Source of the DNA: a virus
Lineage: Duplodnaviria > Caudoviricetes
Direction: 5' to 3' (one strand)
IMG/VR virus record: IMGVR_UViG_3300048854_000065
Location: 2,100 to 66,099 of that record
DNA: 64,000 bases
Shown: piece by piece, positions 1,976-63,466 of the stretch
How the letters are laid out: the number at the start of each line of letters is the position of its first letter
How positions within the stretch are numbered: position 1 is the first letter of the stretch
Notes under the pieces: generated by a model
Seen by the model: only the letters and a program-made list of their open reading frames with translations
What the model was told of the DNA's origin: nothing
Database searches by the model: none
Made by a program: the position numbers and the translations under genes

Positions 1976-1993
1976 TGTGGGCTACAGCCTACA
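1976..1993. promoter_or_regulatory. 18-bp palindromic operator copy
   Basis: TGTGGGCTACAGCCTACA, intergenic, 1 mismatch to TGTAGG-N6-CCTACA. Confidence 0.75.
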
Positions 1994-2011
1994 CAGCCAA
2001 AAGGGGACCCG

Positions 2012-2209
2012 ATGCACCATACTCGCCAGTTGACGCCATCTGCATTGCTCGCAGACATGATGAACGAGCACTACGATCTCTCAGAGAAAGAGCTGATTCA
2101 CAACCTTGGGACGGATTGGCATTGGCCGATGCGTGACCTTGTTCAGCTCAATCTGGTGAGCACTTTCATCAACCATGGGGAGCGCTACTTTGCCATCTCC
2201 CGAGGATGA
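2012..2209 (+). CDS. Small hypothetical protein (possible winged helix)
   Basis: RBS AAGGGGA, ATG, MHHTRQL..., coupled to next gene. Confidence 0.5.
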   Translation: MHHTRQLTPSALLADMMNEHYDLSEKELIHNLGTDWHWPMRDLVQLNLVSTFINHGERYFAISRG

Positions 2210-2585
2210 TGTTGAATTCATTTCGCTCGATCTAAGCCTGTGCGATGACCACGGCGAGAAGATCATGAATGGCCTGAAGAGCCGGAACCTATGGCAGTTC
2301 GTAGGAGACGACGCAGGCGCGGGAATCAAGAGCTTCATGAACCGCCATGGGGTTTTGGGTGCCGGACGCAACAAGGACGGCGAGAAGGTGCCCTATGACC
2401 CTCTGGTTGAGATTCACATGGAGATCATCTTTCGCGCCATGGCGAACATCAGCGATGGAGAGATGGAGCCTTCCGGCTGCCCTCTGTGCAAGATTCTCAA
2501 TCCAGATGAGTGGATGAACAAGGCGATGGATTCCATCGAAATGCATTTCAGGTCGAAGGGCTGGATGAAGGAGACGGTGAATTGA
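2175..2585 (+). CDS. Hypothetical protein
   Basis: ORF track; LCDDH...CPLCK possible metal ligands. Confidence 0.55.
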   Translation: MGSATLPSPEDDVEFISLDLSLCDDHGEKIMNGLKSRNLWQFVGDDAGAGIKSFMNRHGVLGAGRNKDGEKVPYDPLVEIHMEIIFRAMANISDGEMEPSGCPLCKILNPDEWMNKAMDSIEMHFRSKGWMKETVN

Positions 2586-2845
2586 GTACCGCACCCATTC
2601 GTCTTGTTGGGCTGGAGCTGGAGCAGCTACGCATCGATTGCTGGAACCGGGATGGACGTAGGTGCGTGATCTGCCTGCGTCCTGTTCGGCTAAAAGCTGG
2701 AAGCTTCGATTCGCTGCATATGGCCCATGTCAAAGGCCGTGGGGCTGGAGGCCCGGATGTTCTGGAGAACGTGGTGGCGAAGTGCATGGATTGCCATAGC
2801 GGTTTGGAACATAACCCGAAGTCAGTACCGAAGAAGGTGAGATGA
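2582..2845 (+). CDS. HNH endonuclease
   Basis: RDGRRCVIC...HMAHVKGRGAGGPDVLENVVAKCMDCH; TTG start overlapping previous stop. Confidence 0.85.
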   Translation: MSTAPIRLVGLELEQLRIDCWNRDGRRCVICLRPVRLKAGSFDSLHMAHVKGRGAGGPDVLENVVAKCMDCHSGLEHNPKSVPKKVR

Positions 2846-3018
2846 GTCCGATCAAAACAGAGGCATTGTTCAAGCTGGTGCGTGCGGTCGATAAGCAGTT
2901 GGGTGGCGTACCGGCGTGGAAGCAATTGCTGAATGAGGCACGCGCCGAGTTGGGTGTGATCGAGCTGCGCAAACACGCCGAGTACGAAGATGCCGTGATG
3001 CGTATCGAGGAGCGGTGA
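2842..3018 (+). CDS. Small hypothetical protein
   Basis: ATGA overlap with HNH stop; MSPIKTEALFKLV... read by hand. Confidence 0.5.
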   Translation: MSPIKTEALFKLVRAVDKQLGGVPAWKQLLNEARAELGVIELRKHAEYEDAVMRIEER

Positions 3019-3170
3019 TGGACGCATATATCGATCTGGTGGTGTTGGGCGTGCTGATGGAAGAGCACAAGCTTTCCAAAGAGGTAGCGTTCGATCTGGT
3101 GCGACGGAACCGGCAACGCCACTGGAAACAAGAGAAGGACCTGAAGAGCATTCTGGCAGTGTGGCAATGA
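3018..3170 (+). CDS. Small hypothetical protein
   Basis: TGATG coupling; MDAYIDLVVLGVLMEEHK... read by hand. Confidence 0.5.
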   Translation: MDAYIDLVVLGVLMEEHKLSKEVAFDLVRRNRQRHWKQEKDLKSILAVWQ

Positions 3171-3595
3171 GTCAGATCAGCTTCACTGTCTATGACAAGG
3201 CGGAGCCGCAGGGTTCTATGCGTGGGTTCAATACACGCGTAGGCATCCGACTGACCAGCGACAATAAGAAGTTGAAGCTCTACCGTCACAACATTACGCA
3301 GATCGCGCGCATGGAGATGTCCAAGGCCAATCTTCTGGAGCCCATGGCAGCGAAGCACGTCCCGGTGGAGGTGTGGATGGAGTTCACCTTCGTGCGGCCG
3401 CCAAGCGTCTCCAAACGTCGGCTATGGCCTACTGTGAAGCCTGACATCGATAAGCTGGAGCGTGCAGTCTTCGATGCTCTGAAGGGTGTTGTCTTTGCCG
3501 ATGACTGTCAACCCGTTCTCGTTCATAAAAAGAAGTGTTATGGTCCAGTTGAGCAGATATACATCTCAGCGCGGATCGTAACGGAGGCGGGATGA
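3167..3595 (+). CDS. rusA: RusA-family Holliday junction resolvase
   Basis: PQGSMR...KPDIDKLERAVFDALKGVVFADDCQ catalytic signature. Confidence 0.92.
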   Translation: MSQISFTVYDKAEPQGSMRGFNTRVGIRLTSDNKKLKLYRHNITQIARMEMSKANLLEPMAAKHVPVEVWMEFTFVRPPSVSKRRLWPTVKPDIDKLERAVFDALKGVVFADDCQPVLVHKKKCYGPVEQIYISARIVTEAG

Positions 3596-3714
3596 ATGAG
3601 GGCAGGGACTATCTACAGGTGTTCTTCGCTTTATTGTTCTCTCATTGTGTGGCCATCGGGATCGGGCTTCTGATCGCTCTGTTGATTGCCAAGGCCGCAG
3701 GGTGCGGAGTGTGA
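3592..3714 (+). CDS. Small membrane protein
   Basis: ATGA overlap with rusA; hydrophobic VFFALLFSHCVAIGIGLLIALLIA. Confidence 0.45.
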   Translation: MNEGRDYLQVFFALLFSHCVAIGIGLLIALLIAKAAGCGV

Positions 3715-3725
3715 AGCCGGGTGGC

Positions 3726-3902
3726 TTAGGAACCAACCCGGCGTTCTTCATTTTTGGGAAGCATGGTCATAATCTTCCATGCGGTTTTCGAATCAAGGCT
3801 CATCCAGTCGTAGTCCTTCAGTTCCATCCGAACAGCGCGCTGCGCTTTCTTCTGAATCAAACGAAGGCGATCAGCCTCCTCATATTTTGCTCGATCCTTC
3901 AT
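3726..3902 (-). CDS. Small hypothetical protein
   Basis: RBS AAGGA then MKDRAKYEEAD... Confidence 0.45.
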   Translation of the reverse strand: MKDRAKYEEADRLRLIQKKAQRAVRMELKDYDWMSLDSKTAWKIMTMLPKNEERRVGS

Positions 3903-4026
3903 CGGTCGAGTCCTTTCTTTCCGGGTTGATTTGACGATAAATCGACTTGGGAGAAGGAAAGAAAGAGGCCGCAACGCTTTACAGTGTCGGCGGCCTTCTG
4001 CAGTGGGAGGAAATACAGGCACGGAA

Positions 4027-4149
4027 TTATGTAGTTTGTTTGTTACCGGCGTGTCGGACGGCGATGTGGAAACTAAGCCATCGCCAACGATTCCAAGGTC
4101 GGATATGCCATGGCGGTCGGTCATCACAATGAGGACAGACGCAAGGCAC
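4027..4149 (-). CDS. Putative C2H2-type zinc-finger microprotein (40 aa)
   Basis: GTG start; CPHC-x19-HIAVRH; weak RBS. Confidence 0.4.
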   Translation of the reverse strand: MPCVCPHCDDRPPWHIRPWNRWRWLSFHIAVRHAGNKQTT

Positions 4150-4168
4150 GCCAATATGGTTTCCGTAC

Positions 4169-4828: not shown

Positions 4829-4887
4829 TTTAGTAACTCCTCTGTCTGGCGGTAACTGTAGCATTAAAAGCGCAAGTGTAGCGCAAG

Positions 4888-5559
4888 TTACGTGGAGGTA
4901 ACCTGTCGCTTGAGTATCTTTGCGACTACGGGACCCGTCCAAGGTTTACCGGATCGGGTAGGGACTGCGCGCGTGTTGAACGTGTCTGCGATCTGTTTGT
5001 AGGTCAGACCAGACTCTTTGTGAGTGAGAGCTGTAGCTAACGCAATAGCCTCAGCAGGATGAGAGGGATGGAAGCCGAACGCTTTGCGTCCTTCACACTT
5101 GCCGTGACGCGCACGTTTACGCTCGCGTGCGCCTCGTAGTTTCAGAACTGTCATTGCGCGGTCGTACTCCGCGATGGCTCCAAAGATTTGGCGCATCAGC
5201 TTCCGGCTAGGGTCGTCAGAGCACAGATCGGGCTCTGCTGTGGAGATCAGCAGATAACCACTCTTGCGTAGATCGGCAATGATGGTTTCCTGCACCATGA
5301 GATCGCGCGCTAGGCGGTCAAGGCGCTCGATCACGATGGTTCTGCAGTCGGAGGCCTCAAGAGCTGCCAGAAGGCGCTGTAAGGCCGGTCTGGACTCCAG
5401 CTCGTTGGCACCACAAACACCCTCTTCGCGGAAGATTTCGGTGATGACCAGATTGTGGGCTGCAGCATACGCTTGGCAGGCGGCTAATTGTCGGTCGAAG
5501 CCATCACCGTCTACCTGTCCAAGGCCAGAAACCCGGAGGTAAGCGAAACAGGGTTTCAC
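4888..5559 (-). CDS. Serine recombinase (resolvase catalytic domain + short recombinase DNA-binding domain)
   Basis: FAYLRVS catalytic Ser motif, RPALQRLL, IERLDRLARD, C-terminal KQIADTFN...TRSGKPW. Confidence 0.92.
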   Translation of the reverse strand: MKPCFAYLRVSGLGQVDGDGFDRQLAACQAYAAAHNLVITEIFREEGVCGANELESRPALQRLLAALEASDCRTIVIERLDRLARDLMVQETIIADLRKSGYLLISTAEPDLCSDDPSRKLMRQIFGAIAEYDRAMTVLKLRGARERKRARHGKCEGRKAFGFHPSHPAEAIALATALTHKESGLTYKQIADTFNTRAVPTRSGKPWTGPVVAKILKRQVTST

Positions 5560-5735
5560 TGTACCTCCCGTTTGTGGGCCAGAAGGATTTGGCGAGCGTG
5601 TTCCAAGTGGACGATGGCCTTGGCGGCTATGTCTACGGAGTGATCGTCGCGAGGATTCTCGCGAGCTTCGGATGCTAGATGGTTTTGGGTGGCGTCCAGT
5701 TCATCGATTCGGTTGTTGATGAAGGCGAGTTTCAT
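5556..5735 (-). CDS. Small hypothetical protein
   Basis: MKLAFINNRIDELD..., stop overlaps recombinase start. Confidence 0.5.
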   Translation of the reverse strand: MKLAFINNRIDELDATQNHLASEARENPRDDHSVDIAAKAIVHLEHARQILLAHKREVQ

Positions 5736-5745
5736 CGTGGGTCCT

Positions 5746-5958: not shown

Positions 5959-5984
5959 TTAACAGGTCCTCCTTACACGGACCG

Positions 5985-6263
5985 TTATACGCCTTTGAGC
6001 AGATCGGACAAGGTAATTCCGAACCCAAGGGATAGAACTTCGAGCATTTGTAGACTTGCAGTTTTGCTACCAGCTTCGAGGCAGGAGTAGTGACCGCGAT
6101 CAATGCCCCACTGTTCGGCAACGTCTTGCTGAGTGAGCTTAGCCTTCAGGCGCAGCGACTTCAGACGCATGCCGAAACGTACTTCCACCTCATCCACAGA
6201 CGCAGCCTTGGCAGGCGCGCCTATGGATTTGCGGAGTGTTTTGATTGTCTTGTTCATCTTCAC
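5985..6263 (-). CDS. XRE-family HTH transcriptional regulator
   Basis: FGMRLKSLRLKAKLTQQDVAEQWGIDRGHYSCLEAG...SLQML. Confidence 0.88.
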   Translation of the reverse strand: MKMNKTIKTLRKSIGAPAKAASVDEVEVRFGMRLKSLRLKAKLTQQDVAEQWGIDRGHYSCLEAGSKTASLQMLEVLSLGFGITLSDLLKGV

Positions 6264-6388
6264 AGGAGTTGTCCTTTTGCCAGCGGTATAAGGGCGATGG
6301 AGAACCAGTCCACCATTCGATTGAAATGTAGCCCGTAGCCATCATCGTGAATCGCTTGCGCTAAAGTCAACGAAAAAGGCGTTTATTG

Positions 6389-6565
6389 TTACGACTTTCT
6401 TTTATTAGGGGCCTGTTTGTCTCCATTGTCTACGATTTGGCGGAGGCTGGAGATCACGAAGTCACGGAGGGTCATATCGTTGTGCAATGCCGCCGTTTTG
6501 AGTGACTTCAGAAGGTCAGAGGGGAATTCTTTGAGGCTGAGAACGGATTGGCGGGTCTCGTCCAT
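6389..6565 (-). CDS. Ribbon-helix-helix DNA-binding protein (58 aa, below ORF-track cutoff)
   Basis: MDETRQSVLSLKRIPSDLLKSLKTAALHNDMTLRDFVISSLRQIV: beta strand + two helices pattern. Confidence 0.65.
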   Translation of the reverse strand: MDETRQSVLSLKEFPSDLLKSLKTAALHNDMTLRDFVISSLRQIVDNGDKQAPNKRKS

Positions 6566-6593
6566 GGGGTTCTAGGGTCTCCTATCAGTTGTT

Positions 6594-6658
6594 GGGCTGC
6601 TTATCAGGGCCGTTTATCAAGGCCCTTTATCAGGGCTGCTTATCAAGGCTGTTTATCA
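6594..6658. repeat. Five tandem 13-bp direct repeats (consensus RGGCYVYTTATCA)
   Basis: gggctgcttatca gggccgtttatca aggccctttatca gggctgcttatca aggctgtttatca. Confidence 0.85.
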
Positions 6659-11838: not shown

Positions 11839-11856
11839 AGTAGGCTCTAGACGACA
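11839..11856. promoter_or_regulatory. Degenerate palindromic operator copy
   Basis: AGTAGGCTCTAGACGACA (3 mismatches), upstream of the rightward cluster. Confidence 0.45.
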
Positions 11857-13731: not shown

Positions 13732-13973
13732 AGGCGACGATGGTGCTGATGCGGTTCATCGCGGATGTGGTGACTCCGATTCTGATCGGGGCGGCTATCG
13801 GGTGTTTATTGGGAAGGTAGCCCGTCTCAGACCGCTAAGCCGGGCTCAACAGGCTCCGGCCCGACTTGGCAAACTGACAAGCCCTTACAGGAAGGGGCTC
13901 CAGCTTGCGACGGGTGCCTCTAGGGTATCGACCTGAAATTAAATGTGCAAGTGAAAGCGCAAGTGATATACAT

Positions 13974-13991
13974 TGTAGGTCGCAGCCTACA
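13974..13991. promoter_or_regulatory. 18-bp palindromic operator copy (perfect)
   Basis: TGTAGGTCGCAGCCTACA, preceded by GTGCAAG/GCGCAAG repeats, followed by RBS. Confidence 0.8.
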
Positions 13992-14148
13992 GGAGGGTTT
14001 GGACGTTGAACGAGCTGGAGAAAAAGGTGCTTCGCAAGATGAAGATTCGCGCGTTTTTTCGCGGGTTACTGTTCCTCCCGCTGCGCAGTTCGCAGGAGAT
14101 TCTGAAGGATTTTGACCGCCTGACCGAACAGGCCCGGAAGGAGGCCCG

Positions 14149-19681: not shown

Positions 19682-19699
19682 TGTAGGCTCCAGCCGACA
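19682..19699. promoter_or_regulatory. 18-bp palindromic operator copy
   Basis: TGTAGGCTCCAGCCGACA, intergenic. Confidence 0.75.
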
Positions 19700-19709: not shown

Positions 19710-20315
19710 ATGAATCGACGCGAGTTTTTGGGTGGTTCCGGTGCAGTGATGGCTTCGCCTTTCCTGATCTCTACGGTTGGCTGCCCCGCAAAGAACTGGA
19801 TGGACAACGCCGAGGCCGATGCGCACACGGCAACCGCTATTCTTCTCTCCGTGTTGGGTGTGGTGGCCGTAGCTCAGGCGAATGGTCAGCTCAGTCCGTC
19901 GAATGCCGACAAGATTCGACGCGCAGCACAGATCGCACAGACCACTCTGAACGAGCTGGCACAGGCCATCAACGCTTACAAGACTTCGCCGAGTGATACT
20001 GGCCTCGCCAAGATCAGCGACACGCTGAGTCAGCTCGCAACGCAGTTGCCGACGATTCTGGATGGCCTGACGATCAGCGATACCAACACGCGAACCGCGA
20101 TCACAGCCGGTCTGACGCTGGCTATCTCGATTGTGGCAGCTCTGCAGGTGATCGTTCCTTCGGTGCAGGCTACAGGACTGCAGGCGCATACGCGCACAGC
20201 GGCCAAGCCAGCGCTCAAGAGCGGCGATGTGGAGTTGCCGACGCCTACAGCCGTCATCAGCATGTATAACTCCGTGCTGGCGCAGAACGGCTTTTCCGAT
20301 CAGCAGATCAAGTAG
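19710..20315 (+). CDS. Putative Tat-exported lipoprotein, Ala-rich helical
   Basis: MNRREFL twin-arginine motif, hydrophobic core, lipobox-like TVGC. Confidence 0.65.
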   Translation: MNRREFLGGSGAVMASPFLISTVGCPAKNWMDNAEADAHTATAILLSVLGVVAVAQANGQLSPSNADKIRRAAQIAQTTLNELAQAINAYKTSPSDTGLAKISDTLSQLATQLPTILDGLTISDTNTRTAITAGLTLAISIVAALQVIVPSVQATGLQAHTRTAAKPALKSGDVELPTPTAVISMYNSVLAQNGFSDQQIK

Positions 20316-20410
20316 CCTGCAGCCCACAAAATAAATCCGATTCCGTAGCGCAAGTGAGAGCGCAAGCGTGCTATATTTTCCTCTCGGTAGCAAGAGGAGA
20401 AAGAGCCCGT

Positions 20411-21869: not shown

Positions 21870-21943
21870 TCTTCGATAGCTCACTTGGTAGAGCATCTGA
21901 ACTTTGGATCAGAAGGTTGCCGGTTCGACTCCGGCTCGAAAAA
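21870..21943 (+). tRNA. Degenerate tRNA or tRNA-like gene (Gln-TTG-like, 8-nt anticodon loop, no encoded CCA)
   Basis: D arm GCTC-ACTTGGTA-GAGC, stem TCTGA/TCAGA with loop ACTTTGGA, T arm GCCGG-TTCGACT-CCGGC, acceptor TCTTCGA/TCGAAAA with a mismatch. Confidence 0.6.
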
Positions 21944-22006
21944 CTGAAGTCGGGAGGTCGGGGTACACAGGCACGTGGCTCCGGCCTTCCGCCATTAAGG
22001 AGGTTT

Positions 22007-22165: not shown

Positions 22166-22436
22166 CGCGCGCGGGATGACGCAACAGGAGTATTTGGACT
22201 GGCTGCCCACGGTAACGAAGAGATTGAAGCGCAGGACGCGGTTCATTCTCTTTCTCACCTTCATACAGCTTGCGGCTGTCGGCGCGAACTACATGACCAT
22301 GCGACGAGGACAGAAATTCCGCGATCAAAGCATGGCTGCATCGTTAGAGCTGGCGAAGAAGGCTGACGAGGTTCAGCTAAAGACAGAGAAGATGAAAGAG
22401 GCGTGCCTGATGGCGCGCGGAATCAAAAGGAATTGA
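22143..22436 (+). CDS. Single-TM protein with coiled coil
   Basis: FILFLTFIQLAAVGANY. Confidence 0.55.
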   Translation: MNQREIDNARGMTQQEYLDWLPTVTKRLKRRTRFILFLTFIQLAAVGANYMTMRRGQKFRDQSMAASLELAKKADEVQLKTEKMKEACLMARGIKRN

Positions 22437-22439: not shown

Positions 22440-22457
22440 TGTAGGCTTGAACCTACA
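22440..22457. promoter_or_regulatory. Perfect palindromic operator directly after a TTGACA -35 box, upstream of the XRE gene
   Basis: TTGACA (22433-22438) A TGTAGGCTTGAACCTACA. Confidence 0.8.
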
Positions 22458-22508
22458 GGATAGAGGGCATGGCGCAAGCAGTGACGCAAGCGAAGGAGCA
22501 AAGGGGAA

Positions 22509-22769
22509 GTGAATCGACCAAAAGCGCCGACTGCCATTCAGATTGCCCGACAGAAAGAGATTGCCGAGGATTGGAAGGAATTTCGTAAGGCTCACCTGCT
22601 TTCGCAGGATGAGTTTGCCAAGATTCTCGGTATCTCGCGTAGGACCGTCCAGTATGTAGAAAACGGAAACAAACACAAGCCGGAGTGGCTTTGCATGCCG
22701 CTGCCCAACACCATGGCGAAATACAATCGCCTGAAACGCACGTTTGCACAAGAGGCTGTAGCGCAGTAA
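22509..22769 (+). CDS. XRE/Cro-family HTH regulator
   Basis: KEFRKAHLLSQDEFAKILGISRRTVQYVENG. Confidence 0.88.
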   Translation: MNRPKAPTAIQIARQKEIAEDWKEFRKAHLLSQDEFAKILGISRRTVQYVENGNKHKPEWLCMPLPNTMAKYNRLKRTFAQEAVAQ

Positions 22770-24505: not shown

Positions 24506-24711
24506 GAGCAGGTAAAACAAAAGGAATCGACCAATCCAGATAATGTCAAGGCAGATGGCGAGACTTCGGTCTCGCCGATTTTTTGTGGTACGCTTTAGCT
24601 GTCATTGGCGAGAATGACGCTGACTTGCTCATGCAGGTCTCTCCTTTGTAGGGCGCGAAGGCTTCGGAGCAATCCGAGGCCTTTCGTGCTTAAGACTTGT
24701 TCCGGGATCAA

Positions 24712-24729
24712 TGTAGGCTGTAACCTACA
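24712..24729. promoter_or_regulatory. Perfect palindromic operator, 6 nt before the TerL start
   Basis: TGTAGGCTGTAACCTACA. Confidence 0.8.
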
Positions 24730-26891: not shown

Positions 26892-26909
26892 TGTAGGCTG
26901 TAGCCAACA
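26892..26909. promoter_or_regulatory. 18-bp palindromic operator copy
   Basis: TGTAGGCTGTAGCCAACA, intergenic. Confidence 0.75.
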
Positions 26910-26925: not shown

Positions 26926-27450
26926 ATGACCGAACTTGAACTTGTTACGCCTGAAACGCTTGCGCCTCTCGCTGTAGAACAGACAGCGCAGGCACCAGCG
27001 CAAGAACCCGCGCAAGAGATCGTCATGCCTCGCGGTAATGCGCAGATGGCGACGAAGATTTACTTCTGGCACAATCCGCGCACGCAGCACGTCATGCAGG
27101 GTGCGCCTCCGCAGTTTGACTCCATGAAGCCTATGGGCTACCAGACGATTGAGTGCAACCACGCACACGAAGCGGAGATGTGGAGCGAGCGCCTGCGCAG
27201 GCAGGATCAGCGCATCACGGAGATGAGCGACTACGAGCGCGAGCAGATTGAAGGTCCCATGCGCGACGACCTGCGCAAGCAGATCAAGGGGCGTCTGCGC
27301 GAGCTAGAGGCGGGGATCGACACGAAGAACGCACGTCTGAATGCCCTCTTCATGAAGAAGGCTCTTCAGATGTTGGATCAGCAGGAAGAGAAGGCCAAGA
27401 CGATCCGCCAGAGTTACCTGCACGTAGAGGCCTTCGAGAATGGCAAATAG
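26926..27450 (+). CDS. Hypothetical protein between TerL and portal
   Basis: ORF track; coiled-coil C-half. Confidence 0.65.
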   Translation: MTELELVTPETLAPLAVEQTAQAPAQEPAQEIVMPRGNAQMATKIYFWHNPRTQHVMQGAPPQFDSMKPMGYQTIECNHAHEAEMWSERLRRQDQRITEMSDYEREQIEGPMRDDLRKQIKGRLRELEAGIDTKNARLNALFMKKALQMLDQQEEKAKTIRQSYLHVEAFENGK

Positions 27451-29917: not shown

Positions 29918-29935
29918 TGTAGTTGACAGCCTACA
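29918..29935. promoter_or_regulatory. Palindromic operator containing TTGACA
   Basis: TGTAGTTGACAGCCTACA, upstream of the scaffold/capsid genes. Confidence 0.75.
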
Positions 29936-30074
29936 TTCGATATGTTGGAGTAACGAAGACGCGATTCACTTCGCGCATGAGATTCAGTCACCCCCATCCC
30001 TCGGGACTGTGCCTGCCTCAAGAGCTGAAAAGCCTTGGGGCTTTTCTATTTTGGGCACTATTCGGAGGAAGTTA

Positions 30075-42062: not shown

Positions 42063-42080
42063 TGTAGGCTACAACCGACA
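42063..42080. promoter_or_regulatory. Palindromic operator abutting the nozzle-gene ATG
   Basis: TGTAGGCTACAACCGACA followed directly by ATG. Confidence 0.75.
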
Positions 42081-45000: not shown

Positions 45001-45962
45001 GAGCAGTGGATGCTGGAGACTCGCGAGCCAACAAGCGCGTAGGTGATCTCTACTTCCGTGCCAGCGTGGTCGGCTCTCCCATCGCCGTGACGCCTTACCA
45101 GAATCAATACGCCAACGCAGTGGTGGGATTTGCGCCTACCTCGCTGGCGGTGGGCAGCGGCCTGCAGCCCTACATCGTAGACTTTGCCGATGGCGATGGA
45201 CTCGACGCCAACGATGTCGAAGTGGCGCTGTCGTGGAGCCTCGGCAACACGACCTACCTCGATCTCTGGCAGCCTGATTTCACCTTCTTCCCGGAGGATA
45301 CGCAGAATCGTCCTACCGACTGGACCGACATGGGTTCGACCGGGAACAACTTCGTGCAGGGACTTGTTCTGCAGGCCGATACTTTCAACCAGCCGAAGAG
45401 CATCGCCGTAGAGACGCAGGATGGCGTTCTGCATGTACCGGATCAGAACCCGGTAAAGTTCAACGGTGAAGGAAAGCAGACGCTCACCTTCACCCCTCCC
45501 TTCACTGGCTACATGGTGCGCATCGTCACGACCGACAATGTGCCATGGCGGTTGTGGCCTACACCTGATGCAGCATGGGTCAAGCAGCCCTATCCGCCTT
45601 CGGTGGTGAACTGGCAGACGCAGATGTCTTCGCTTGGCAATCAGGGATGGCAGCACATCCGCGAGATGAACATTGCCTATGCGGCCACGCAGGAGGTTAC
45701 GCTTACCCTGCGCTTCGATCCCGGAGCTACAACCTCGGCGATCACCCTGACTCTTCCGGCGACAGGAGGACTGCAGTCAAAGACGAAGTTCACCATCCCG
45801 GTGAATAAGTTCAAGCTGGTCAGTTTCCGTCTCAGCTCTGCAGCTCCCTTTAGCGTTTGGGAGGAAGACATGGAGTGCAAGATCGGCATGTGGGGACGGC
45901 AGACCCCGTACCTCAATATCAAACCCATTGGAGCTGAGAGCGGAGTAGGCGCGACGGTATGA
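42081..45962 (+). CDS. Tail nozzle/stabilisation-type protein with inserted lectin-like domains
   Basis: 1293 aa before ejection genes; PA14-like GNLFVPGPGTYNFTITSKD...YPIELDY; LecA-like QLQLGVDG...NSGSFTV. Confidence 0.6.
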   Translation: MSDEQQYKRDPNGNRFQMSGISTVLPIDMMAGKYPYLQNVRSYLGGRIMARATQSDAVASLGAPVHTLRRLNDTTPLGPPSGYALIGGAGDGLFCNSTEVATGLSGNPFAMVPFRPNSSPEPWMYCADSSQATHIINPAFNAAGMLKVRADGLTYKMGVKEPQDAPDVATETTTVTGSVSVLGTARPWSNVAGANPSFNYGDNGNGTGPSVIATPITGASVTLTATGIANVNGSPHSAGDAGPTGGSNPGQFMGGSCAILCGAWTDSSGNVIASGALSIGAGTTLIVPAGADQLQLGVDGTGGSFAANSGSFTVSYSIVTSPVTTVVSTLGQITAYYWGDSPHSGPVAAYIWKNAGDTGGSGPVRDISTAAGSTTNNSFLFDTTPSNPNSAMTWDVLDESGATVGQNVVFSPALESNGYQDFNMCIVGNLFVPGPGTYNFTITSKDNVMWGIGNNASWPGKGTIFGALGQNQTVVSSNPLLPSPTINGGGAATTITVAVTFPGAGVYPIELDYDYWFHSGRTLTLNCNGAVIPPISGSVKTDVSYVYVYRSSLTGATSNPSPQSPLQSIPAIANTITPEWSPDPQVDKVDYYRMDSGLDNYTYVGTGPNTNPPTSFTDTLLDSDVIGNPILQVDNYEPFPSIDFPVNGVVNVIGGVVHWASGNQFNVRWLPGTIINIGGIAYTLYNRPSSTTALLAVDVADGLGLSYEIAEPILAAQPMASMWGTSDNTLYAFACGDPLRAGTLYWCKGNNLDSAPDTNQQDVTSPSEPLINGVIVNGVGMVLSAENGWMIYPNFYAAQATVNGVSGSAFSLIRSGVTRGLYIRPCITTDGSGTFFYRSKDGIEASVGGSRQQSLTDDDLFNIFPHEGYVPQPITLGGFTIYPPDDSQPEKQKLNYATGYLYYDYVDTTGTPRTLVYDAQGKGWVVDVYQHSATLHTLEEGPNANDVLVGSSDGSIRPLRNGAAETGSAVVLTGAVDAGDSRANKRVGDLYFRASVVGSPIAVTPYQNQYANAVVGFAPTSLAVGSGLQPYIVDFADGDGLDANDVEVALSWSLGNTTYLDLWQPDFTFFPEDTQNRPTDWTDMGSTGNNFVQGLVLQADTFNQPKSIAVETQDGVLHVPDQNPVKFNGEGKQTLTFTPPFTGYMVRIVTTDNVPWRLWPTPDAAWVKQPYPPSVVNWQTQMSSLGNQGWQHIREMNIAYAATQEVTLTLRFDPGATTSAITLTLPATGGLQSKTKFTIPVNKFKLVSFRLSSAAPFSVWEEDMECKIGMWGRQTPYLNIKPIGAESGVGATV

Positions 45963-46981: not shown

Positions 46982-46999
46982 TGTAGGTTGTAGACTACA
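46982..46999. promoter_or_regulatory. Palindromic operator before ejection-protein genes
   Basis: TGTAGGTTGTAGACTACA, intergenic. Confidence 0.75.
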
Positions 47000-47017: not shown

Positions 47018-47569
47018 ATGAGCTTTGCCGCGTCCCTCTTTGGCGGTTCGAATCCGACGATCAATAAGCAGATCGATCAGCTCGGCAACTTCTCCGGGTC
47101 TACGATGAAGACCGGGTTTGCCGATACGAACGCGGCTTCGACCTTCTTCCAGTCGCTTCTGAATGGGAATGATTCGAAGGTGTTGGCTCCGCAGGTTCGT
47201 TCCATCCAGAACCAAACCCAACAGGCCAAGCAGACCGCTTCGCAGTTTGGCAACCGCTCCGGTGGAACCAACTCGCAGATGCAGCAGGCCGGAGCTACAG
47301 GGCGCGCTGCCTACAACGATCTTGTCTCCAGCCTCCTCGGCACGTCGGCAAGCTCGCTGGCTGGCATTGGCAGCAACCTGTTGAGCACCAGTCTGACCGG
47401 CTACCAGCAGCAGTTGAACGCATCGCAGCAGCAGATGCAGAACTGGCAGAACAGCATCTTCGGCAAGGGCATCACAGGTGCCATTGGAACCGCAGAGGGC
47501 TTCGGCCTCGGCATGGGCATGAACGCGATCAGCCCATCAACCTTTAGCACACTGTACGGGAGTCACTAA
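47018..47569 (+). CDS. Putative DNA pilot/ejection protein
   Basis: G/S/Q/A-rich, MSFAASLFGG start, typical position. Confidence 0.6.
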   Translation: MSFAASLFGGSNPTINKQIDQLGNFSGSTMKTGFADTNAASTFFQSLLNGNDSKVLAPQVRSIQNQTQQAKQTASQFGNRSGGTNSQMQQAGATGRAAYNDLVSSLLGTSASSLAGIGSNLLSTSLTGYQQQLNASQQQMQNWQNSIFGKGITGAIGTAEGFGLGMGMNAISPSTFSTLYGSH

Positions 47570-53075: not shown

Positions 53076-53118
53076 AGTAATGCAGGGTAAGTGTAGGTGA
53101 TGCTATTTTAGCCTTCGG

Positions 53119-53169
<51 letters not shown>

Positions 53170-53183
53170 ATAAAATCAACAAC

Positions 53184-54380
53184 TTAGACTTGAGAGGCCG
53201 GTGAGGAATCGGTGAATCGGTGGGACTTTCGGTGGGACTGCTCGAAAGAGTGGGAAGCTGGTGGGAGTAGCTGCCCGATAGACTCAACCGCATCGCGATG
53301 TTGCTCCGTGGTGAAATGGGAGTACCGGCGAGCCATCAGCAAATACTGTGACGGGCTCCAGCCTGCGATCTCGCCGATCTGCTGGAGGGAGGTTCCAGCC
53401 ATCAGCATCCGGGTGATGCCGGTATGGCGTAGGTCATGGACCCGGCAACGAACCTTAGCCCTAGTCTGCGCTCCCTGCCATGCTGTCTTGATACTTCCGA
53501 TGTGGGTGGACGGGTCCGTGTCGTAGGCGATGCTCTGGTCTGTCGTCTTGCCGGGTTTGAAGAGGTGGCCGCTCCCACCATACCGCTCCGAAGGGAAGAC
53601 ATAATCATCGGGCTTGCGGTCGGGGAACTGTTCAGCCCACATCTGCAGAGTAAGGAACGCCTTCCCCGCGAGCGGGATGATGCGGTGATCTCCCGAGACG
53701 GTTTTGTCTTTGCCCCATTGCAGGCAGCGGGAGGCAAAGTTGACGTTCTTCCACTTCAGCCGAACGATGACTCCAAACCGGGCGATGGTGTATAGGGCAA
53801 CGATTGCGATCACGATCACAGATCGCGAACGGGACTTGGAGCACTCAGCCAGAAGCCGGGTCTCCTCGTCGGCAGAGAGAGCACGACCATGGCTCTCACG
53901 TTGCTTGAGCATTTTCACTTTGGGGGATTTGGTGTTGCCCTGAACGCGAGCCCACTGACCACAGAAGATGAGGACAGCTCGAATGGTTCCTATCTCATTG
54001 TTGATGGTTTTGTTGGCGGCACCCTTCTCTTTTCGAATGCGCTGGTAGCTGGCGATGTCTTCGGCCGATAGTTCAGTGGAGAAGTTCATGCCAAGGACCG
54101 GGAGGATGTGATCGAGATCGGTGCGAGCTATTCGAGCTGTGTTCTCTGACCAGCTAACCTTCTTCATGTCGTGCCAGTCTTCAGCTACAACTTTGAAGAG
54201 CTTTGGACCTTCTGCTTTCTTGAAACCGCTGCGACCCGATTCCAGCTCTTCACGTCGATTGCGTTCGACTCGGTTGGCCAGAGACTTGGTTCTCTGGTGT
54301 GTGGATTCTTTGATTCGGACTCCCTGAAAAATGAAATCCATCACGAAAACTTGTTGCCCTTTAGGTTTGTAGGTGGACAT
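53184..54380 (-). CDS. int: Tyrosine integrase
   Basis: HDLRHT (HxxR), AGWS, RRYSH catalytic Tyr, N-terminal arm-binding domain; adjacent to att. Confidence 0.95.
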   Translation of the reverse strand: MSTYKPKGQQVFVMDFIFQGVRIKESTHQRTKSLANRVERNRREELESGRSGFKKAEGPKLFKVVAEDWHDMKKVSWSENTARIARTDLDHILPVLGMNFSTELSAEDIASYQRIRKEKGAANKTINNEIGTIRAVLIFCGQWARVQGNTKSPKVKMLKQRESHGRALSADEETRLLAECSKSRSRSVIVIAIVALYTIARFGVIVRLKWKNVNFASRCLQWGKDKTVSGDHRIIPLAGKAFLTLQMWAEQFPDRKPDDYVFPSERYGGSGHLFKPGKTTDQSIAYDTDPSTHIGSIKTAWQGAQTRAKVRCRVHDLRHTGITRMLMAGTSLQQIGEIAGWSPSQYLLMARRYSHFTTEQHRDAVESIGQLLPPASHSFEQSHRKSHRFTDSSPASQV

Positions 54381-54401
54381 GGTGCGTAAAATTATATGGC
54401 A

Positions 54402-54440
54402 TTGACGGCAAGATTAAGTAATTGTAGGCTACAACCTACA
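54402..54440 (+). promoter_or_regulatory. Promoter for xis overlapped by a perfect operator
   Basis: TTGACG-17 bp-TAGGCT; operator TGTAGGCTACAACCTACA at 54423-54440. Confidence 0.7.
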
Positions 54441-54453
54441 TGGAGGTATCGCT

Positions 54454-54726
54454 TTGGTAAAGGGCAAATCGGAAGCCAAAAAGCTGGAAGTGGTGGACCG
54501 CAATCTGACGGTCGCAGAGGCAGCGGAGCAGTTGAGCGTCAAGGAAAAGACGGTGCGAGGGTGGATTCTACTGCGCAAGATTAGATATGTGAAGATCATG
54601 GGCGGGGCGGTTCGTATTCCTCAGTCGGCTGTAGGCGAGATGATCCGAACGATTCCTCCGCTCGCCAAAAAGAAGGGACCCGGCAGCGTAACAGCGGAGG
54701 AAATCCATGCCAGAGAATCTGCTTGA
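54454..54726 (+). CDS. Excisionase-like HTH_17 protein
   Basis: LTVAEAAEQLSVKEKTVRGWI...GGAVRIPQS; divergent from int. Confidence 0.85.
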   Translation: MVKGKSEAKKLEVVDRNLTVAEAAEQLSVKEKTVRGWILLRKIRYVKIMGGAVRIPQSAVGEMIRTIPPLAKKKGPGSVTAEEIHARESA

Positions 54727-54898
54727 TAGGCGTGAAGCACGGAAGGCTGAAGGCCGTAAGAAGGCCGACAGCAAAGCCACGGAGCCGGACTGGAAGACAC
54801 CCTGCTTCGTGTGTGGGGAGAAGCCTACGGTGCCCTGCACTGGCATGTGTGGGCCTTGTACGTTCGGCGAGGCAGAGACGGCTGGAGGCAACTGGTGA
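54707..54898 (+). CDS. Small zinc-binding protein
   Basis: CFVC...CGPC. Confidence 0.55.
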   Translation: MPENLLDRREARKAEGRKKADSKATEPDWKTPCFVCGEKPTVPCTGMCGPCTFGEAETAGGNW

Positions 54899-57245: not shown

Positions 57246-57901
57246 GTTCCACCCATCCCCGGTATAGCGTCCAGATCGGGAGCCTGTTCCTGCGGTGGCA
57301 CGCCTTCAGGGGTCGCCAGCACTACACCCATGCCCTCCTGTACTTCGTGGCCTACTACAGCCTCATCAATGGGAGCGCCATTGACCTTGCCAGTGGTTAC
57401 CAGTACCGGCACCTGCAGTAAACCTGCAGGCGGAGCGGATGGATTGAGCTGACGGTTGAGAGCGTTGATCGTGCTCTCTAGATTCGGAATCTCCATCTGC
57501 AGCCGGAGTACAGTGGCCTGTGCTTCGATCAGCGCTTTGCGTCTCTGTGTGAGGAGAGCTTCTGCGCTCTTGAGTGCAGTGTGGAAGGGGCTGTTGGCTA
57601 CGTCCCTGCGTTTGCGCGGTGCTTTTTCGGGTGATCCTTTGGTGCGGGGCATAGCTGTCTCCTGTTCGGGCAATGTTGGCTCCTGTGTTTCGCAAAATTT
57701 GAGACCGAGTGCGGTGATCTGACGACGGTCAAAGCCTGCAACTTCAAACGCGATGAAGAGGTCTTCGATCAGCAGTTCCCGCTGCACGCTGTCAGAGAGG
57801 CGAGAGGCGGTGGAGAGAGCCGCAACGCAGCTCTCCGCATCGGGGTAGCGAATCCGGAGCATCTTTACTGACTGCTCCGACGTGAATGAGGTTCTAGGCA
57901 T
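57236..57901 (-). CDS. Hypothetical coiled-coil protein
   Basis: ORF track. Confidence 0.55.
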   Translation of the reverse strand: MPRTSFTSEQSVKMLRIRYPDAESCVAALSTASRLSDSVQRELLIEDLFIAFEVAGFDRRQITALGLKFCETQEPTLPEQETAMPRTKGSPEKAPRKRRDVANSPFHTALKSAEALLTQRRKALIEAQATVLRLQMEIPNLESTINALNRQLNPSAPPAGLLQVPVLVTTGKVNGAPIDEAVVGHEVQEGMGVVLATPEGVPPQEQAPDLDAIPGMGGTWS

Positions 57902-59072
57902 GGGCTACTTGGGAGACCGGGACTGCAGGAGGAAGAAACTTCATGGAGCTGACGCGGAACCAACCGGGAATGCCGGTTCGTTCGATAGAGGCATTACCGC
58001 CTTTGCGATTCACTTCAGCCAGAAGCCACGTATGGAGCTGTGCGCGAGAGGGATGCGGAGCCGGGAGCGATTCAGCCAACCTTAGAACGTCGTCGGCACG
58101 GAATTCTTTACCGACGAGCTGAGGGAAGACACGCTCGCGAATAGCACCGATGCCGTAACCGCAAAGATTGACAGCCTTGGCGGCTTTTCCGGGGCCTCGC
58201 TTCTTTGTGGGACCCTCTTCGACTACGACAGGGAGCGATGGGAGAAGGGGCAACAGGTCAGCAGCTTCAGCGGCTAGCTGTTCGTGCTTGGCGATGTACT
58301 GTTCCAGTTGCGTTTGCTTTAGAACGTCCTGATCCTGTTGGGCCTTCAGAGCGGCGAACTGTTTTTCGTATTCTTCGAGGCGCACGTTGGTAGCGCTCAG
58401 TTCGTTACGCGCGCGTTCTAGCAGTTGAGACATGAAGTCATCCTCGCTTGTGGGTAATGTTAGGACTGGAGCCGGAACCAAAGGCGCTGCAGGAGCAGCC
58501 CTGCGAACAAAATGCTCTTCTGTTTTGCACTGATTGATGAAGGTGTTCATCGCCTCATCGCCCTCAGCATGGAGTAAACGATTCGCCTCTTCCATCTGTT
58601 CGGTTGTGAGGGTGCGGTAACTGGAGGGTTTTGGTTTCTGTTCAGCACGAATCTTACGGGGAGATCGGTGAACAGGCTCTTGCTCTTCGACCTTTAGGTC
58701 TTCGGGCATAGCAATGATAGTGAAGTCGATCTCTTTTTCGGGTACGGGTTCGCTGCCCGGTATGGCAGAAAATGCGGAGATGGATTTCTTGGATTGAAGG
58801 AGATCGCCGATGGTGTTACTGAGTGCAGTCTTCTTTCGTATGTTCCGGCCGCGATCCGCTATCGCTGGATGGGTGTGGCGAAGTTCCCGGCGAAGAGCGG
58901 AGAGGCAGTTTCGTACACCTCGATAGTCGCTTGGGGTTTTAGGACAAACGAAGAGCTTCCCGTTTGGCAGCTCATATTTTAGGTGGCCTTTTTGCGACAT
59001 CATCCGGCTGCCTGAGTCCTTCAGCATCGACATAATGTCCCGCATGCATAGGTCATTCACAGTATGTTGCAC
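57894..59072 (-). CDS. HicA-like N-terminal domain fused to coiled coil and C-terminal winged-helix-like region
   Basis: SQKGHLKYELPNG...PKTPSDYRGVRNCLSALRR. Confidence 0.6.
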   Translation of the reverse strand: MQHTVNDLCMRDIMSMLKDSGSRMMSQKGHLKYELPNGKLFVCPKTPSDYRGVRNCLSALRRELRHTHPAIADRGRNIRKKTALSNTIGDLLQSKKSISAFSAIPGSEPVPEKEIDFTIIAMPEDLKVEEQEPVHRSPRKIRAEQKPKPSSYRTLTTEQMEEANRLLHAEGDEAMNTFINQCKTEEHFVRRAAPAAPLVPAPVLTLPTSEDDFMSQLLERARNELSATNVRLEEYEKQFAALKAQQDQDVLKQTQLEQYIAKHEQLAAEAADLLPLLPSLPVVVEEGPTKKRGPGKAAKAVNLCGYGIGAIRERVFPQLVGKEFRADDVLRLAESLPAPHPSRAQLHTWLLAEVNRKGGNASIERTGIPGWFRVSSMKFLPPAVPVSQVAHA

Positions 59073-59086
59073 CTCCTCTGATTGAT

Positions 59087-59295
59087 TGTTGTCGCCAGCC
59101 TACAAGCGCAAGCGATTAAAGTCACACACAAAAGTTACATGCAAGGGGCATCCCAAGCAATACCCCTGCGTGACCTACATTTGCCCGATGTAGCCTTGGC
59201 GTACCCTTATTTACCCTGTAAACCACAGAAAATACAGCAACTTAGAAGGTGACAAAACCGAATCGCTTGCGCTACGGTGTAGGTTGCAGCCTACA
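59087..59295. promoter_or_regulatory. Symmetric divergent control region
   Basis: Operators at 59087-59104 and 59278-59295; inverted AGCGCAAGCGATT at 59105-59117 and 59261-59273. Confidence 0.75.
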
Positions 59296-59305
59296 TAGGA
59301 GCCAT

Positions 59306-60370: not shown

Positions 60371-60657
60371 TCCACCCGGAGATTAGAGAGATTCGCGTGC
60401 CCTTTTTTCTTCATCGCCCATCCATGGGAGACATTCAGCCTGCTGCTCCTCCGGAAATGATTCCGAACCTAGAGCTGCGCTTCTTCCCGGTATCGAAGGT
60501 GAACGGCAAGGGTGTGTATCGGTGCATGGATTGCGCCTTTTCCAATCTGGAATGGGTGGGCTTCGAAGAGCAGATTTTTGAGCATGCTCAGACTCATCAG
60601 CGCATGGCGCAATGGTATGAGACGAGGATTTTACCGATGTTGAAACGCAGTAAATAA
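60367..60657 (+). CDS. Hypothetical protein with C2H2-like motif
   Basis: YRCMDC-x16-HAQTH. Confidence 0.55.
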   Translation: MIHPEIREIRVPFFLHRPSMGDIQPAAPPEMIPNLELRFFPVSKVNGKGVYRCMDCAFSNLEWVGFEEQIFEHAQTHQRMAQWYETRILPMLKRSK

Positions 60658-60672
60658 GAAGGAGAAAACAGC

Positions 60673-61629: not shown

Positions 61630-62149
61630 GCCGTTTTATGAAGAGGGTCTGCACGTCGGAGAGATTACGCAGCATGGCATTGGACGCACGAAGAGCGATA
61701 AACCACAGATCGTTTGGCGGGTGAAGGTGTTGGGTTATCCCGAAGGGACCGACGGCCTGAAGCCGCACAGGGCACAGTACGAACGCACCATCTATCAGGT
61801 GATCTCAGAGAAGACGGTGCCCTTCGTCACGGAGCAGTTGAAGTCGATTGGCTTCGATGGAGAGAAGGTCTCGCAGCTCAATCCCGATCATCCTCAGCAC
61901 GTCGATATGCGTGGCATTCAGGTCAACCTGTGGTGCAAGCATGAAGACGATCTCGAAGGCGAACCGCGTGAGCGCTGGCAGTTCAGCCGTCCACCACAGG
62001 CTCTTGATTTGCCGCAGCTTGGCAACAAGGAAATCCGAGAGCTGGATTCTCTCTTCGGCCGCAACCGGAATGCAGCGAAGCCAGCTTCATCGGCTCGGGT
62101 GCAGAACGTTCACAACGAAGAGATCACCGACGAAGATATCCCGTTTTAG
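61622..62149 (+). CDS. Putative single-stranded DNA-binding protein (DUF669-like)
   Basis: After Sak4; acidic tail ending EITDEDIPF. Confidence 0.75.
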   Translation: MGKPFYEEGLHVGEITQHGIGRTKSDKPQIVWRVKVLGYPEGTDGLKPHRAQYERTIYQVISEKTVPFVTEQLKSIGFDGEKVSQLNPDHPQHVDMRGIQVNLWCKHEDDLEGEPRERWQFSRPPQALDLPQLGNKEIRELDSLFGRNRNAAKPASSARVQNVHNEEITDEDIPF

Positions 62150-62489
62150 GTGACTTTTCCCTTTGAGAGATAGGAGGGGGGTGAAGAAGACCATGGAGAG
62201 TACAAGCCAGCAACGTTTGTCTATCACATCGAATTTGTGGCTGAAGGCAACGAGGTTATGCAGGTCGATACAGTTGAGCCTGTTTGCGATCATCGCTACC
62301 CTGACAATCCTCAGCTCCAGTGCGACAGCACAAAAGAAGGACAGGGTGGATGGATCACCATTCGATCTGCCTTCGCGGTCATCGACTATCGAAAGCAGCC
62401 GTGACAATCCCGTTATCGCAACGATTCGACGCCTGACACCACATTATCGCTGCGTTGTACACGCCTGCTGCCCGTAGGAGCCGTATCGG

Positions 62490-62831
62490 ATGGCAGAGCA
62501 TAAAACGGTTCAGAACAAAAGGGAGAGACGTATGAGTTGGCAGTATCAACCACCCGTACCTGACGAGGTTCAGGAAAAGATCAACGCGGTGAATGCAGAG
62601 AAGGCGCAAGCGAGCTTTGTGAATGGCTGCCCTCCTCCGCTGACTTATGGAGGCCAGCTTCAGGGACAGGCACAAGCCTTCGGACTTCGCGAGTCTCTGT
62701 CGCATCGTATTGAGCGTCAGCTTGAGAATGCCCGTAGTGATCGCGACCGCTATGCTCGCGCTCTGGACATCCTGAAGCGTCATCCTGAGTTCGAAGAGCT
62801 GATCGAACTTCTCAACATGCATTTGATCTAG
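62490..62831 (+). CDS. Hypothetical protein
   Basis: ORF track; coiled-coil C-half. Confidence 0.55.
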   Translation: MAEHKTVQNKRERRMSWQYQPPVPDEVQEKINAVNAEKAQASFVNGCPPPLTYGGQLQGQAQAFGLRESLSHRIERQLENARSDRDRYARALDILKRHPEFEELIELLNMHLI

Positions 62832-62848
62832 AAAGCGGAGGTAACACC

Positions 62849-63391
62849 ATGTCTGATGACCAGAACGTTAGCAATGAACAGGCCGTGGCCGACGAACAGC
62901 AGCAGCTTGACGAGCGTCAGGAAGCTACGGCCACCCACGATGCCCCACAGGAGGCCGAAGGAAGCGTTCCTGCGGACGAGTCGGCTCCTACCGACACTGA
63001 TCCCGTATCGGACGCGCCTGATGCCCCTGTACAGCCGGAGGACGCATCTCCAGAAGTACCGGAGACCGTCAACAAGCTGTACGAAGGTGTTCGCGTCGTC
63101 ACCCTGACCGGTGGAATGAATGTCGTACTGGCGAAGGCCTCTGTGCTTTCCAACCATGACGAGCAGCGCATCTCCGGTGAGTTCCCTACAGCGGCCGAAG
63201 CCCTCGCCGATGCAGAGAACACTGCCCAACTGCAGGTGGCACAGGCCAAGGAAAGCGGAGCCGTCGTCGGCGATGAGCTGAAGGACGATGACGAAGACAG
63301 CAGCGATGTCAGCGACGAAGACGATGAACCTGCAGTCGAAAACGAGCCTGCAGTCGATGCAGATAACTCGGCAGAGACGCACGCAGAGTAG
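62849..63391 (+). CDS. Highly acidic low-complexity protein
   Basis: RBS GCGGAGG; D/E-rich throughout. Confidence 0.65.
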   Translation: MSDDQNVSNEQAVADEQQQLDERQEATATHDAPQEAEGSVPADESAPTDTDPVSDAPDAPVQPEDASPEVPETVNKLYEGVRVVTLTGGMNVVLAKASVLSNHDEQRISGEFPTAAEALADAENTAQLQVAQAKESGAVVGDELKDDDEDSSDVSDEDDEPAVENEPAVDADNSAETHAE

Positions 63392-63437
63392 GTCCGGGTA
63401 ACACAGAGTAAGACAGAGCAAGCATGTCGTTTTTTGC

Positions 63438-63466
63438 TTGCGCTTGTGTAGGCTCTGACCTACATT
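63438..63466 (+). promoter_or_regulatory. Promoter for the replication gene with operator in the spacer
   Basis: TTGCGC-17 bp-TACATT; operator TGTAGGCTCTGACCTACA at 63447-63464. Confidence 0.65.

Follow-up and report, generated by a model that had tools for sequence, protein, structure and literature searches.

An 18-bp palindrome, TGTAGG-N6-CCTACA, is present in about 13 conserved copies ahead of nearly every plus-strand module of the phage genome analysed here. The stretch under study (the window, 64,000 nt) covers bases 2100-66099 of the 66,099-bp IMG/VR record IMGVR_UViG_3300048854_000065, which has 97-bp terminal repeats and is called G000 in our comparisons. The palindrome is phage-specific, and the phage, to judge from its attachment site, is a temperate one whose host is an uncultured member of the soil Acidobacteriota. 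We lean, with moderate confidence, towards reading the copies as double-stranded DNA operators of a single phage-encoded protein of twofold symmetry (a dimer), most likely a helix-turn-helix (HTH) repressor. Genome-wide phage operators are already known, mainly from actinobacteriophages; what is new here is the host phylum.

Copies, conservation and placement of the palindrome

TGTAGG-N6-CCTACA is by far the commonest dyad in the genome. Six copies are perfect (13974, 22440, 24712, 54423, 59278 and 63447) and six have one mismatch (1976, 19682, 26892, 29918, 42063 and 46982), exactly at the positions given in an earlier note on this DNA; we call these 12 the strong sites. Shuffled sequence yields 0.00 perfect copies, and 0.98 copies at two mismatches or fewer compared with 15 observed. 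At three mismatches or fewer there are 60 matches, where about 14 are expected, and for this reason lone three-mismatch matches are not individually callable.

Relatives were recovered through TerL searches. At the DNA level, the window shares about 78% identity with two of them, G001 and the 65.8-kb G003, which has terminal repeats, and about 69% with a third, G002; all three, together with the metagenome contigs L160 and L162, have the motif at orthologous positions. Over 21 orthologous site comparisons, identity is 96% in the arms, 82% in the spacer and 61-62% in the 20-nt flanks, and these alignments show purifying selection on the arms. Imperfect sites stay imperfect across genomes (26892, 46982 and 29918). 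Conservation islands centred on sites adjoin swapped, non-homologous genes; in the comparison with G003, the 13974 site is a 66-bp island of 91% identity between stretches of unalignable DNA, and the xis-proximal site is retained in G001 and G003 despite an int/xis module that is only about 40% identical. No dominant dyad was found in four near-complete relatives with TerL identities of 53-60%, whose common part with the window is the structural module only.

Contig L161 (TerL 83%) has a symmetric variant, TGTTG-N8-CAACA (TGTTGCCTGTAGACAACA), and, where the 26892 site would be, a form with a spacer of 4, TGTAGGCTAGCCAACA (L161:3080-3125 and L161:900-995). The variant may mark a diverged immunity type.

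The perfect palindrome has no copy in five Acidobacteriota genomes picked through a tRNA-Asn attB match. In a larger set of 401 Acidobacteriota genomes a copy is found in 15, never more than two per genome, and the motif is rarer than a reversed control pattern (the tally includes an unpublished genome, G059, on which no claim depends). A scan of IMG/VR for the 8-2-8 form, TGTAGGCT-N2-AGCCTACA, finds multiple copies in G003 only and single copies in eight other contigs. The palindrome is called phage-specific because it is no commoner than the control pattern in Acidobacteriota genomes. Phages often carry boxes for LexA or other host regulators; a host transcription-factor box (e.g., for SOS or another global regulator) borrowed by the phage is nevertheless very improbable, given the counts just cited and the related phages that share only the structural module and do not have the motif. 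It was rejected on the pattern scans, of the five genomes and then of the 401.

All 12 strong sites are intergenic, though intergenic DNA makes up only 10% of the window, in agreement with the earlier statement that nearly all copies lie between genes and upstream of them. At most strong sites, the palindrome ends 0-18 nt before a plus-strand start codon. Longer leaders follow the sites at 22440, 29918 and 63447, with distances of sometimes 50-140 nt, and several sites sit in gaps of 36-63 nt with no visible promoter. Five of the 12 are in the structural region, and the minus-strand blocks have no strong site at all. Among the weaker copies that had been listed earlier, we treat 59087 as real because it is start-proximal to the minus-strand gene g96 and has a one-mismatch ortholog in G003, and 11839 as probably real because in G003 a two-mismatch site lies about equally far from the gene that follows (107 vs 111 nt); 20311 is doubtful. 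The sites are as follows.

1976..1993: one-mismatch site, TGTGGGCTACAGCCTACA, in a 43-nt gap before a small gene at 2012; ortholog in G003
6327..6344, minus strand: degenerate site, TGATGGCTACGGGCTACA, three mismatches, not significant alone; overlaps the -10 of the g17 promoter; tentative (arms kept in G003, spacer different)
11839..11856: weak site, three mismatches, inside a 750-nt non-coding region
13974..13991: perfect site at the head of the operon beginning at 14006
19682..19699: one-mismatch site in a 36-nt gap before the gene at 19710; orthologs in G003 and L160 perfect
20311: doubtful match, three mismatches, overlapping a stop codon
22440..22457: perfect site ahead of the XRE gene g56; TTGACA abuts its left edge; kept in G003, G001, L160 and G002
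24712..24729: perfect site 6 nt before the TerL ATG at 24736 (start-proximal only if this ATG is the TerL start), downstream of a terminator at 24556-24577
26892..26909: one-mismatch site between TerL and the gene at 26926; G003, G001 and L160 have the same site sequence with the same mismatch
29918..29935: one-mismatch site containing TTGACA; about 90 nt of leader and then a terminator (30027-30046) come after it; 18-mer identical in five genomes
42063..42080: one-mismatch site abutting the ATG of a 1293-aa gene
46982..46999: one-mismatch site before the gene at 47018; mismatch kept in G003 and G001
54423..54440: perfect site between the integrase and Xis-like genes; overlaps TTGACG-17-TAGGCT
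59087..59104: weak site, two mismatches, 14 nt upstream of the GTG at 59072 of minus-strand g96; one-mismatch ortholog in G003
59278..59295: perfect site in a divergent region, 10 nt before a PD-(D/E)XK nuclease gene
63447..63464: perfect site followed by a leader and a terminator with a 13-bp stem at 63522-63555

Two further matches with two mismatches are genic (45546-45563 and 54812-54829) and occupy the same positions in G001/G003, some of them there with one mismatch. They may be weak functional sites or merely conserved coding sequence.

The window has a GC content of about 56%, and crude gene calling gives about 104 genes (90% coding). One plus-strand block, for recombination and replication, occupies 59.3-64 kb and runs on into 0-3.7 kb; another, at 11-53 kb, holds early, packaging and structural genes. 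Minus-strand blocks cover 3.7-10.8 kb and 55.4-59.1 kb, and the tyrosine integrase gene (53184-54341) is on the minus strand as well. Domain annotations were confirmed for the integrase, a serine recombinase, an ArdC-like protein, the PD-(D/E)XK nuclease, RusA, HNH, AAA_25, AAA_24, the XRE proteins at 5985 and 22509, TerL, the major head protein and an HTH_17 Xis-like protein at 54454, the last of which, like TerL, had been labelled so before. The attP core (53105-53183) directly adjoins the integrase gene and is the 3' half of a tRNA-Asn(GTT), 38 nt of which are exactly matched in more than 120 genomes, nearly all of Acidobacteriota (Terriglobus, Pyrinomonadaceae and Blastocatellia among them); host and temperate lifestyle are assigned because this attP, next to an integrase, matches Acidobacteriota genomes. 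A hunt for lysogens by TerL in the 401 genomes gives a single distant match (39% identity). Megablast of 20 kb of the window against GenBank phages gives no match, so there is no near relative among them.

Two observations concern tRNA sequences. The T-arm of the tRNA-Asn in attP, TGTAGG-TTCGAGT-CCTAC, is a 7-spacer look-alike of the palindrome, probably by coincidence. A tRNA gene at 21870-21944 scores 53.8 bits with Rfam, and ARAGORN gives it an unassigned two-base anticodon.

The proposed operators weighed against other readings

Are the palindromes DNA sites, or hairpins in the RNA? Among 26 distinct intergenic sites, TGT.G and C.ACA are invariant save for one A18->G site in G002, and the remaining variation is confined to the symmetric positions 4/15 and 6/13. 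Departures within the core leave 13 pairs unpaired, two as G·T and none compensated, which equals the chance rate. T8 and A11 are symmetrically semi-conserved, yet a loop of 2 nt would keep them from pairing. With 48 G·T and 41 A·C combinations, the two kinds are about equally frequent, and hence the transcribed strand shows no bias; none of the sites matches an Rfam family. Together, the sequences point to DNA sites for a dimer rather than RNA hairpins, and a twofold-symmetric protein that binds the duplex is favoured because the sequence of the stem is conserved and its centre is variable.

Where a promoter can be guessed, it lies against or under a site. Extended -10-like boxes, TGATATTAT (1966) and TGATATACA (13964), end 1 nt before the palindromes at 1976 and 13974. 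TTGACA at 22433 abuts the 22440 site, another TTGACA (29923) is inside the 29918 site, and the 54423 palindrome contains the -10 of TTGACG-17-TAGGCT (54402); these last three had been pointed out earlier and all are present. Perfect sites tend to mark where an operon begins, one of them following the terminator at 24556 and others lying in the divergent regions 54342-54453 and 59061-59305, and one-mismatch sites occupy short gaps within operons. We infer both protein binding and repression rather than activation: repression is favoured because sites overlap promoters wherever one can be guessed, and a lysogeny repressor because xis is found in the regulated set together with recombination, replication, early, packaging and structural genes.

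In the mechanism that we propose, nearly every plus-strand module (xis, recombination, replication, early operon, packaging, head and tail or ejection genes, the last a putative label) would have an operator at its transcription start, slightly downstream of it or in a short 5' leader. Each repressor subunit would read a half-site of roughly TGTAGGYT. The bound repressor would occlude or roadblock RNA polymerase, such that the lytic programme and excision are silenced together, as in a lysogen. Perfect sites would be the strong primary operators and imperfect sites weaker internal roadblocks.

Several observations weigh against the operator reading. A recognisable promoter box accompanies only about 4-6 of the 12 sites, and sigma70-like promoters are scarce altogether, with seven matches on both strands where about 29 are expected from shuffles; because of this scarcity, many promoters would be unseen and the division into operators and roadblocks is conjectural. 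No candidate binder co-varies cleanly with the motif. Most sites can be folded as RNA hairpins of -7 to -10 kcal/mol. The flanks of imperfect sites tend to be complementary: at least two Watson-Crick flank pairs are found in four of six one-mismatch sites and none of six perfect sites in G000, and across relatives the figures are 11 of 25 imperfect and one of 15 perfect sites, the samples not being independent. Flank pairs also co-vary between orthologs (CA..TG vs AA..TT at 46982; AA..TT vs CTT..AAG at 29918). A protein that reads the duplex does not predict such complementarity, which hints at a hairpin, a cruciform or templated quasi-palindrome mutation; the last of these is an alternative account of the complementary flanks that is neutral.

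A hairpin formed by the 5' leader RNA shortly before the ribosome-binding site, acting in processing, stability or translational control, possibly with a phage RNA-binding protein, would suit the position of sites 0-18 nt before starts, several of them in 36-63 nt gaps that look promoterless, as well as the folding energies and the complementary, in two cases co-varying, flanks of imperfect cores. We consider it unlikely, however. Thirteen of the 15 core departures unpair the stem and none is compensated, G·U is in no excess over A·C, Rfam offers no match, and the symmetry of T8/A11 is inexplicable by pairing. Stem mismatches are kept across genomes (26892, 46982 and 29918), and a conserved stem sequence around a variable loop is the reverse of what most protein-bound RNA hairpins have. 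Structure and sequence might matter jointly, with TGT.G/C.ACA recognised by a phage factor on a DNA hairpin or cruciform or on a nascent-RNA stem, as a genome-wide punctuation of gene starts. This reading we hold to be quite unlikely. If it were true, selection on total helix stability would explain the extended, co-varying flanks of imperfect cores, and the system would couple the entry of transcription to each module in a manner unlike that of duplex operators and stoperators.

A DNA element with no part in transcription (a recombination hot spot at module boundaries, a cruciform, or a centromere-like site of partition or condensation) is improbable. Several G003 homology blocks do start or end at sites, near genome coordinates 4075, 16073, 24539 and 65546, and the complementary flanks would suit hairpin or cruciform formation or templated mutation. 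Every strong site precedes a gene start, however, and none is at a 3' end or a random junction; ParA/ParB was not found among the scanned proteins, and the phage integrates through int/attP. The conserved islands beside swapped genes are equally expected of operators. We give as little credence to activator sites, or promoter elements of a phage-specific transcription factor that switches on each module, an alternative that the earlier note had raised. Canonical sigma70-like promoters are scarce on the plus strand and every module has a site, as such a factor would lead one to expect, but the sites are too near the start codons for a -41 or -55 position, and no conserved box, -10-like or other, was found at a fixed distance downstream of the sites. 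One activator for xis, early and late genes together would also be biologically odd, and a palindrome has no direction, yet all target genes but one are on one strand.

Some features of the intergenic regions may be recorded here. Extended -10-like TGATAT boxes recur at 1966, 10898 and 13964, with TGCTATATT at 20369. Leaders of about 60-90 nt with strong terminator-like hairpins just before the next gene follow two sites (29936-30046 and 63465-63555); this architecture after 29918 and 63447 suggests small RNAs or control by antitermination. Between the 22440 site and g56, the leader (22458-22508) is nearly 100% identical in G000, G003 and G001, against a protein-level identity of only 64-77% for the coding DNA next to it. 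A second motif, GCGCAAG(Y)GA, has 36 copies where 16 are expected, often as tandem pairs 11-12 bp apart (13945-13966, 20348-20366, 22472-22494, 4870-4887, 26998-27016, 42032, 59106, 59266, 63437, 63475 and 6355). It adjoins seven palindromes, lies within or just upstream of the -10 boxes at 13964, at 20369 and in the g17 promoter, and is conserved in relatives; a second regulator may bind there.

Candidate binding proteins

Three genes have to be introduced.

g17, 5985..6257, minus strand: 90-aa XRE protein, Pfam HTH_19/HTH_3; candidate repressor
g56, 22509..22769, plus strand: 86-aa XRE protein, upstream of the terminase genes; candidate binder of the earlier note
g96, 57894-59072, minus strand: 392-aa protein, divergent from the recombination operon and partner of the 59278 site

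The earlier note proposed that one dimeric regulator, most plausibly the XRE protein at 22509 (g56), controls every lytic module. Symmetric, phage-specific sites ahead of nearly every plus-strand module agree with a single dimeric regulator; the choice of g56 does not fare as well. A conserved site is present upstream of this gene. It belongs to the core genes of the family and keeps its synteny with g57, g58 and TerL in all of it; in about 50 syntenic homologs from the wider family (TerL identity 45-60%) its recognition helix, G-I/L-SRRTVQ, is near-invariant. Most of the phages with a g56 homolog do not have the motif, even ahead of their own g56 copy, and the helix is the same with or without it, which disposes of covariation between g56 and the motif. 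The only part of g56 specific to the motif-bearing clade is a 7-residue insertion after the HTH, and this is confounded with phylogeny.

From its sequence, g17 appears at least as likely as g56 to bind the palindrome. Its relatives in PDB are DdrO and the C-proteins of restriction-modification systems, and it resembles dimeric XRE repressors. The gene is in a minus-strand block without a strong site, and its promoter, TTGACT-18-GATGAT, is one of the few sigma70-like ones. It is present in G003 and G002 and was not found in five relatives without the motif, a pattern that is confounded, as those five share only the structural module and differ throughout the early region. In G002, the region upstream of g17 has no site, and the recognition helix of g17 is not strictly conserved.

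The RHH protein at 6389, also named as a candidate in the earlier note, is an unlikely binder, as it has a tandem-repeat array of its own in the neighbouring intergenic region. In the ESM Atlas, g96 has a HicA-like N-terminus, a central coiled coil and a weakly HARE-HTH-like C-terminus; its odds were lowered because it is absent from G002, which retains the motif. We dropped g37, which has a weak PadR-like match and is absent from G003. Weighing the candidates roughly, on sequence grounds, we find that the binder may well be a protein other than the two XREs (g96, g2, g88 or an unrecognised one), that g17 is the next possibility, to be held tentatively, and that g56 is an unlikely choice.

Other dyads occur in the wider family. 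GTTCCA-N2-TGGAAC is found as a single copy ahead of the g56 homologs in L306, L172, L212, L215, L308, L307, L272, L211 and L195, and the g56 recognition helix in this clade is the same as in the window; being a single copy, the dyad was set aside as a counterpart of the dominant palindrome. The palindrome GTCCAGAWTCTGGAC in the more distant relatives L291, L215 and L308 was not accepted as a counterpart either, with 3-5 copies per locus in mixed intergenic and genic placement. In loci with TerL identities of about 55%, TGCATC-N5-GATGCA forms arrays that adjoin the g56 homolog and the terminase genes: 15 copies in L195 (6722-7944), many of them about 70 bp apart, and five each in L177, L260 and L263 (about 5200-5600). 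A dispersed regulon was rejected for L195, where the copies form a clustered array, and CRISPR was rejected for the arrays since the repeats vary. Possible roles for them are those of an origin, a pac region or an iteron-like array.

Relation to known phage systems

The conserved inverted repeats (CIRs) of phiC31, reportedly described by Wilson et al. in 1995, are said to be palindromes of about 17 bp that number well over a dozen, most of them between genes and close to promoters. They are also said to occur at the promoter of the repressor itself and to be bound by isoforms of one repressor. The sites described here are likewise a multi-copy intergenic palindrome; repressor binding is shown for phiC31 and only inferred here. 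As for an XRE's own promoter, one site lies ahead of g56 (22440) and a degenerate one on the g17 promoter. We know of no sequence relation between the CIRs and TGTAGG-N6-CCTACA. Late promoters of P2 that depend on Ogr/Delta contain a TGT-N12-ACA dyad whose centre is about 55 bp ahead of the transcription start. The outer spacing of TGT and ACA is the same in our palindrome, which speaks for activator sites, but a distance of 0-18 nt to the start codon leaves no room for a promoter. Ogr_Delta has no Pfam match among about 60 scanned proteins, a scan that did not include several small zinc-ribbon proteins such as g16.

The earlier note had likened the sites to the stoperators of Cluster A mycobacteriophages. 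In the accounts of the L5/Bxb1 repressor (gp71 or gp69), stoperators silence the prophage at promoters and also by blocking elongation (PMC9283540, PMC3029335). They are described as asymmetric sites of 13-14 bp that follow the direction of transcription and are bound by a two-domain repressor in the form of a monomer (PMC9283540, PMC4351075). The likeness holds in that there are many copies across the genome, late genes included, mostly intergenic and phage-specific rather than host boxes, with the same proposed silencing. It does not hold for the oriented asymmetry: here the sites are 18-bp palindromes with symmetric conservation and no orientation, implying a dimer, and the host is of another phylum.

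In Cluster O mycobacteriophages, a 17-bp dyad, TGTTCGG-N3-CCGAACA, has invariant arms and a variable spacer, and its binder and function are given as unknown (PMC4351075). That dyad is reported in more than 30 copies, about one third of them genic and not linked to starts, in phages that appear lytic (PMC4351075), whereas here we have about 13 copies, the strong ones all intergenic and start-proximal, in a temperate phage. The start-associated sequences (SAS) and extended SAS (ESAS) of Cluster K are described as lying a few bases upstream of many start codons, retained even ahead of differing genes, and not found in the host; no compensatory changes are reported for the ESAS inverted repeats (PMC3203893). 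The SAS itself is an asymmetric 13-mer with a Shine-Dalgarno core, 3-8 bp from the start, at non-structural genes only, according to the same source (PMC3203893). Our sites differ in being palindromic, in having no AGGAG core, in lying 0-18 nt (sometimes 50-140 nt) from the start and in occurring also in the structural operon. In its likely operation, the system is most like a CIR or stoperator regulon, without the asymmetry that defines stoperators.

Gene regulation is almost unexplored in phages of the Acidobacteriota, a dominant soil phylum that is hard to culture. A single operator ahead of nearly every lytic module and of xis would provide a ready-made map of the regulon. The motif may also serve as a marker of immunity groups: relatives that share it should be homoimmune, and L161, with TGTTG-N8-CAACA, may be heteroimmune. 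A compact pair of operator and repressor could be reused as a genetic tool. The finding would extend the genome-wide operator design beyond actinobacteriophages, and it would be conceptually new only if DNA or RNA structure, as well as sequence, proved to be what is recognised.

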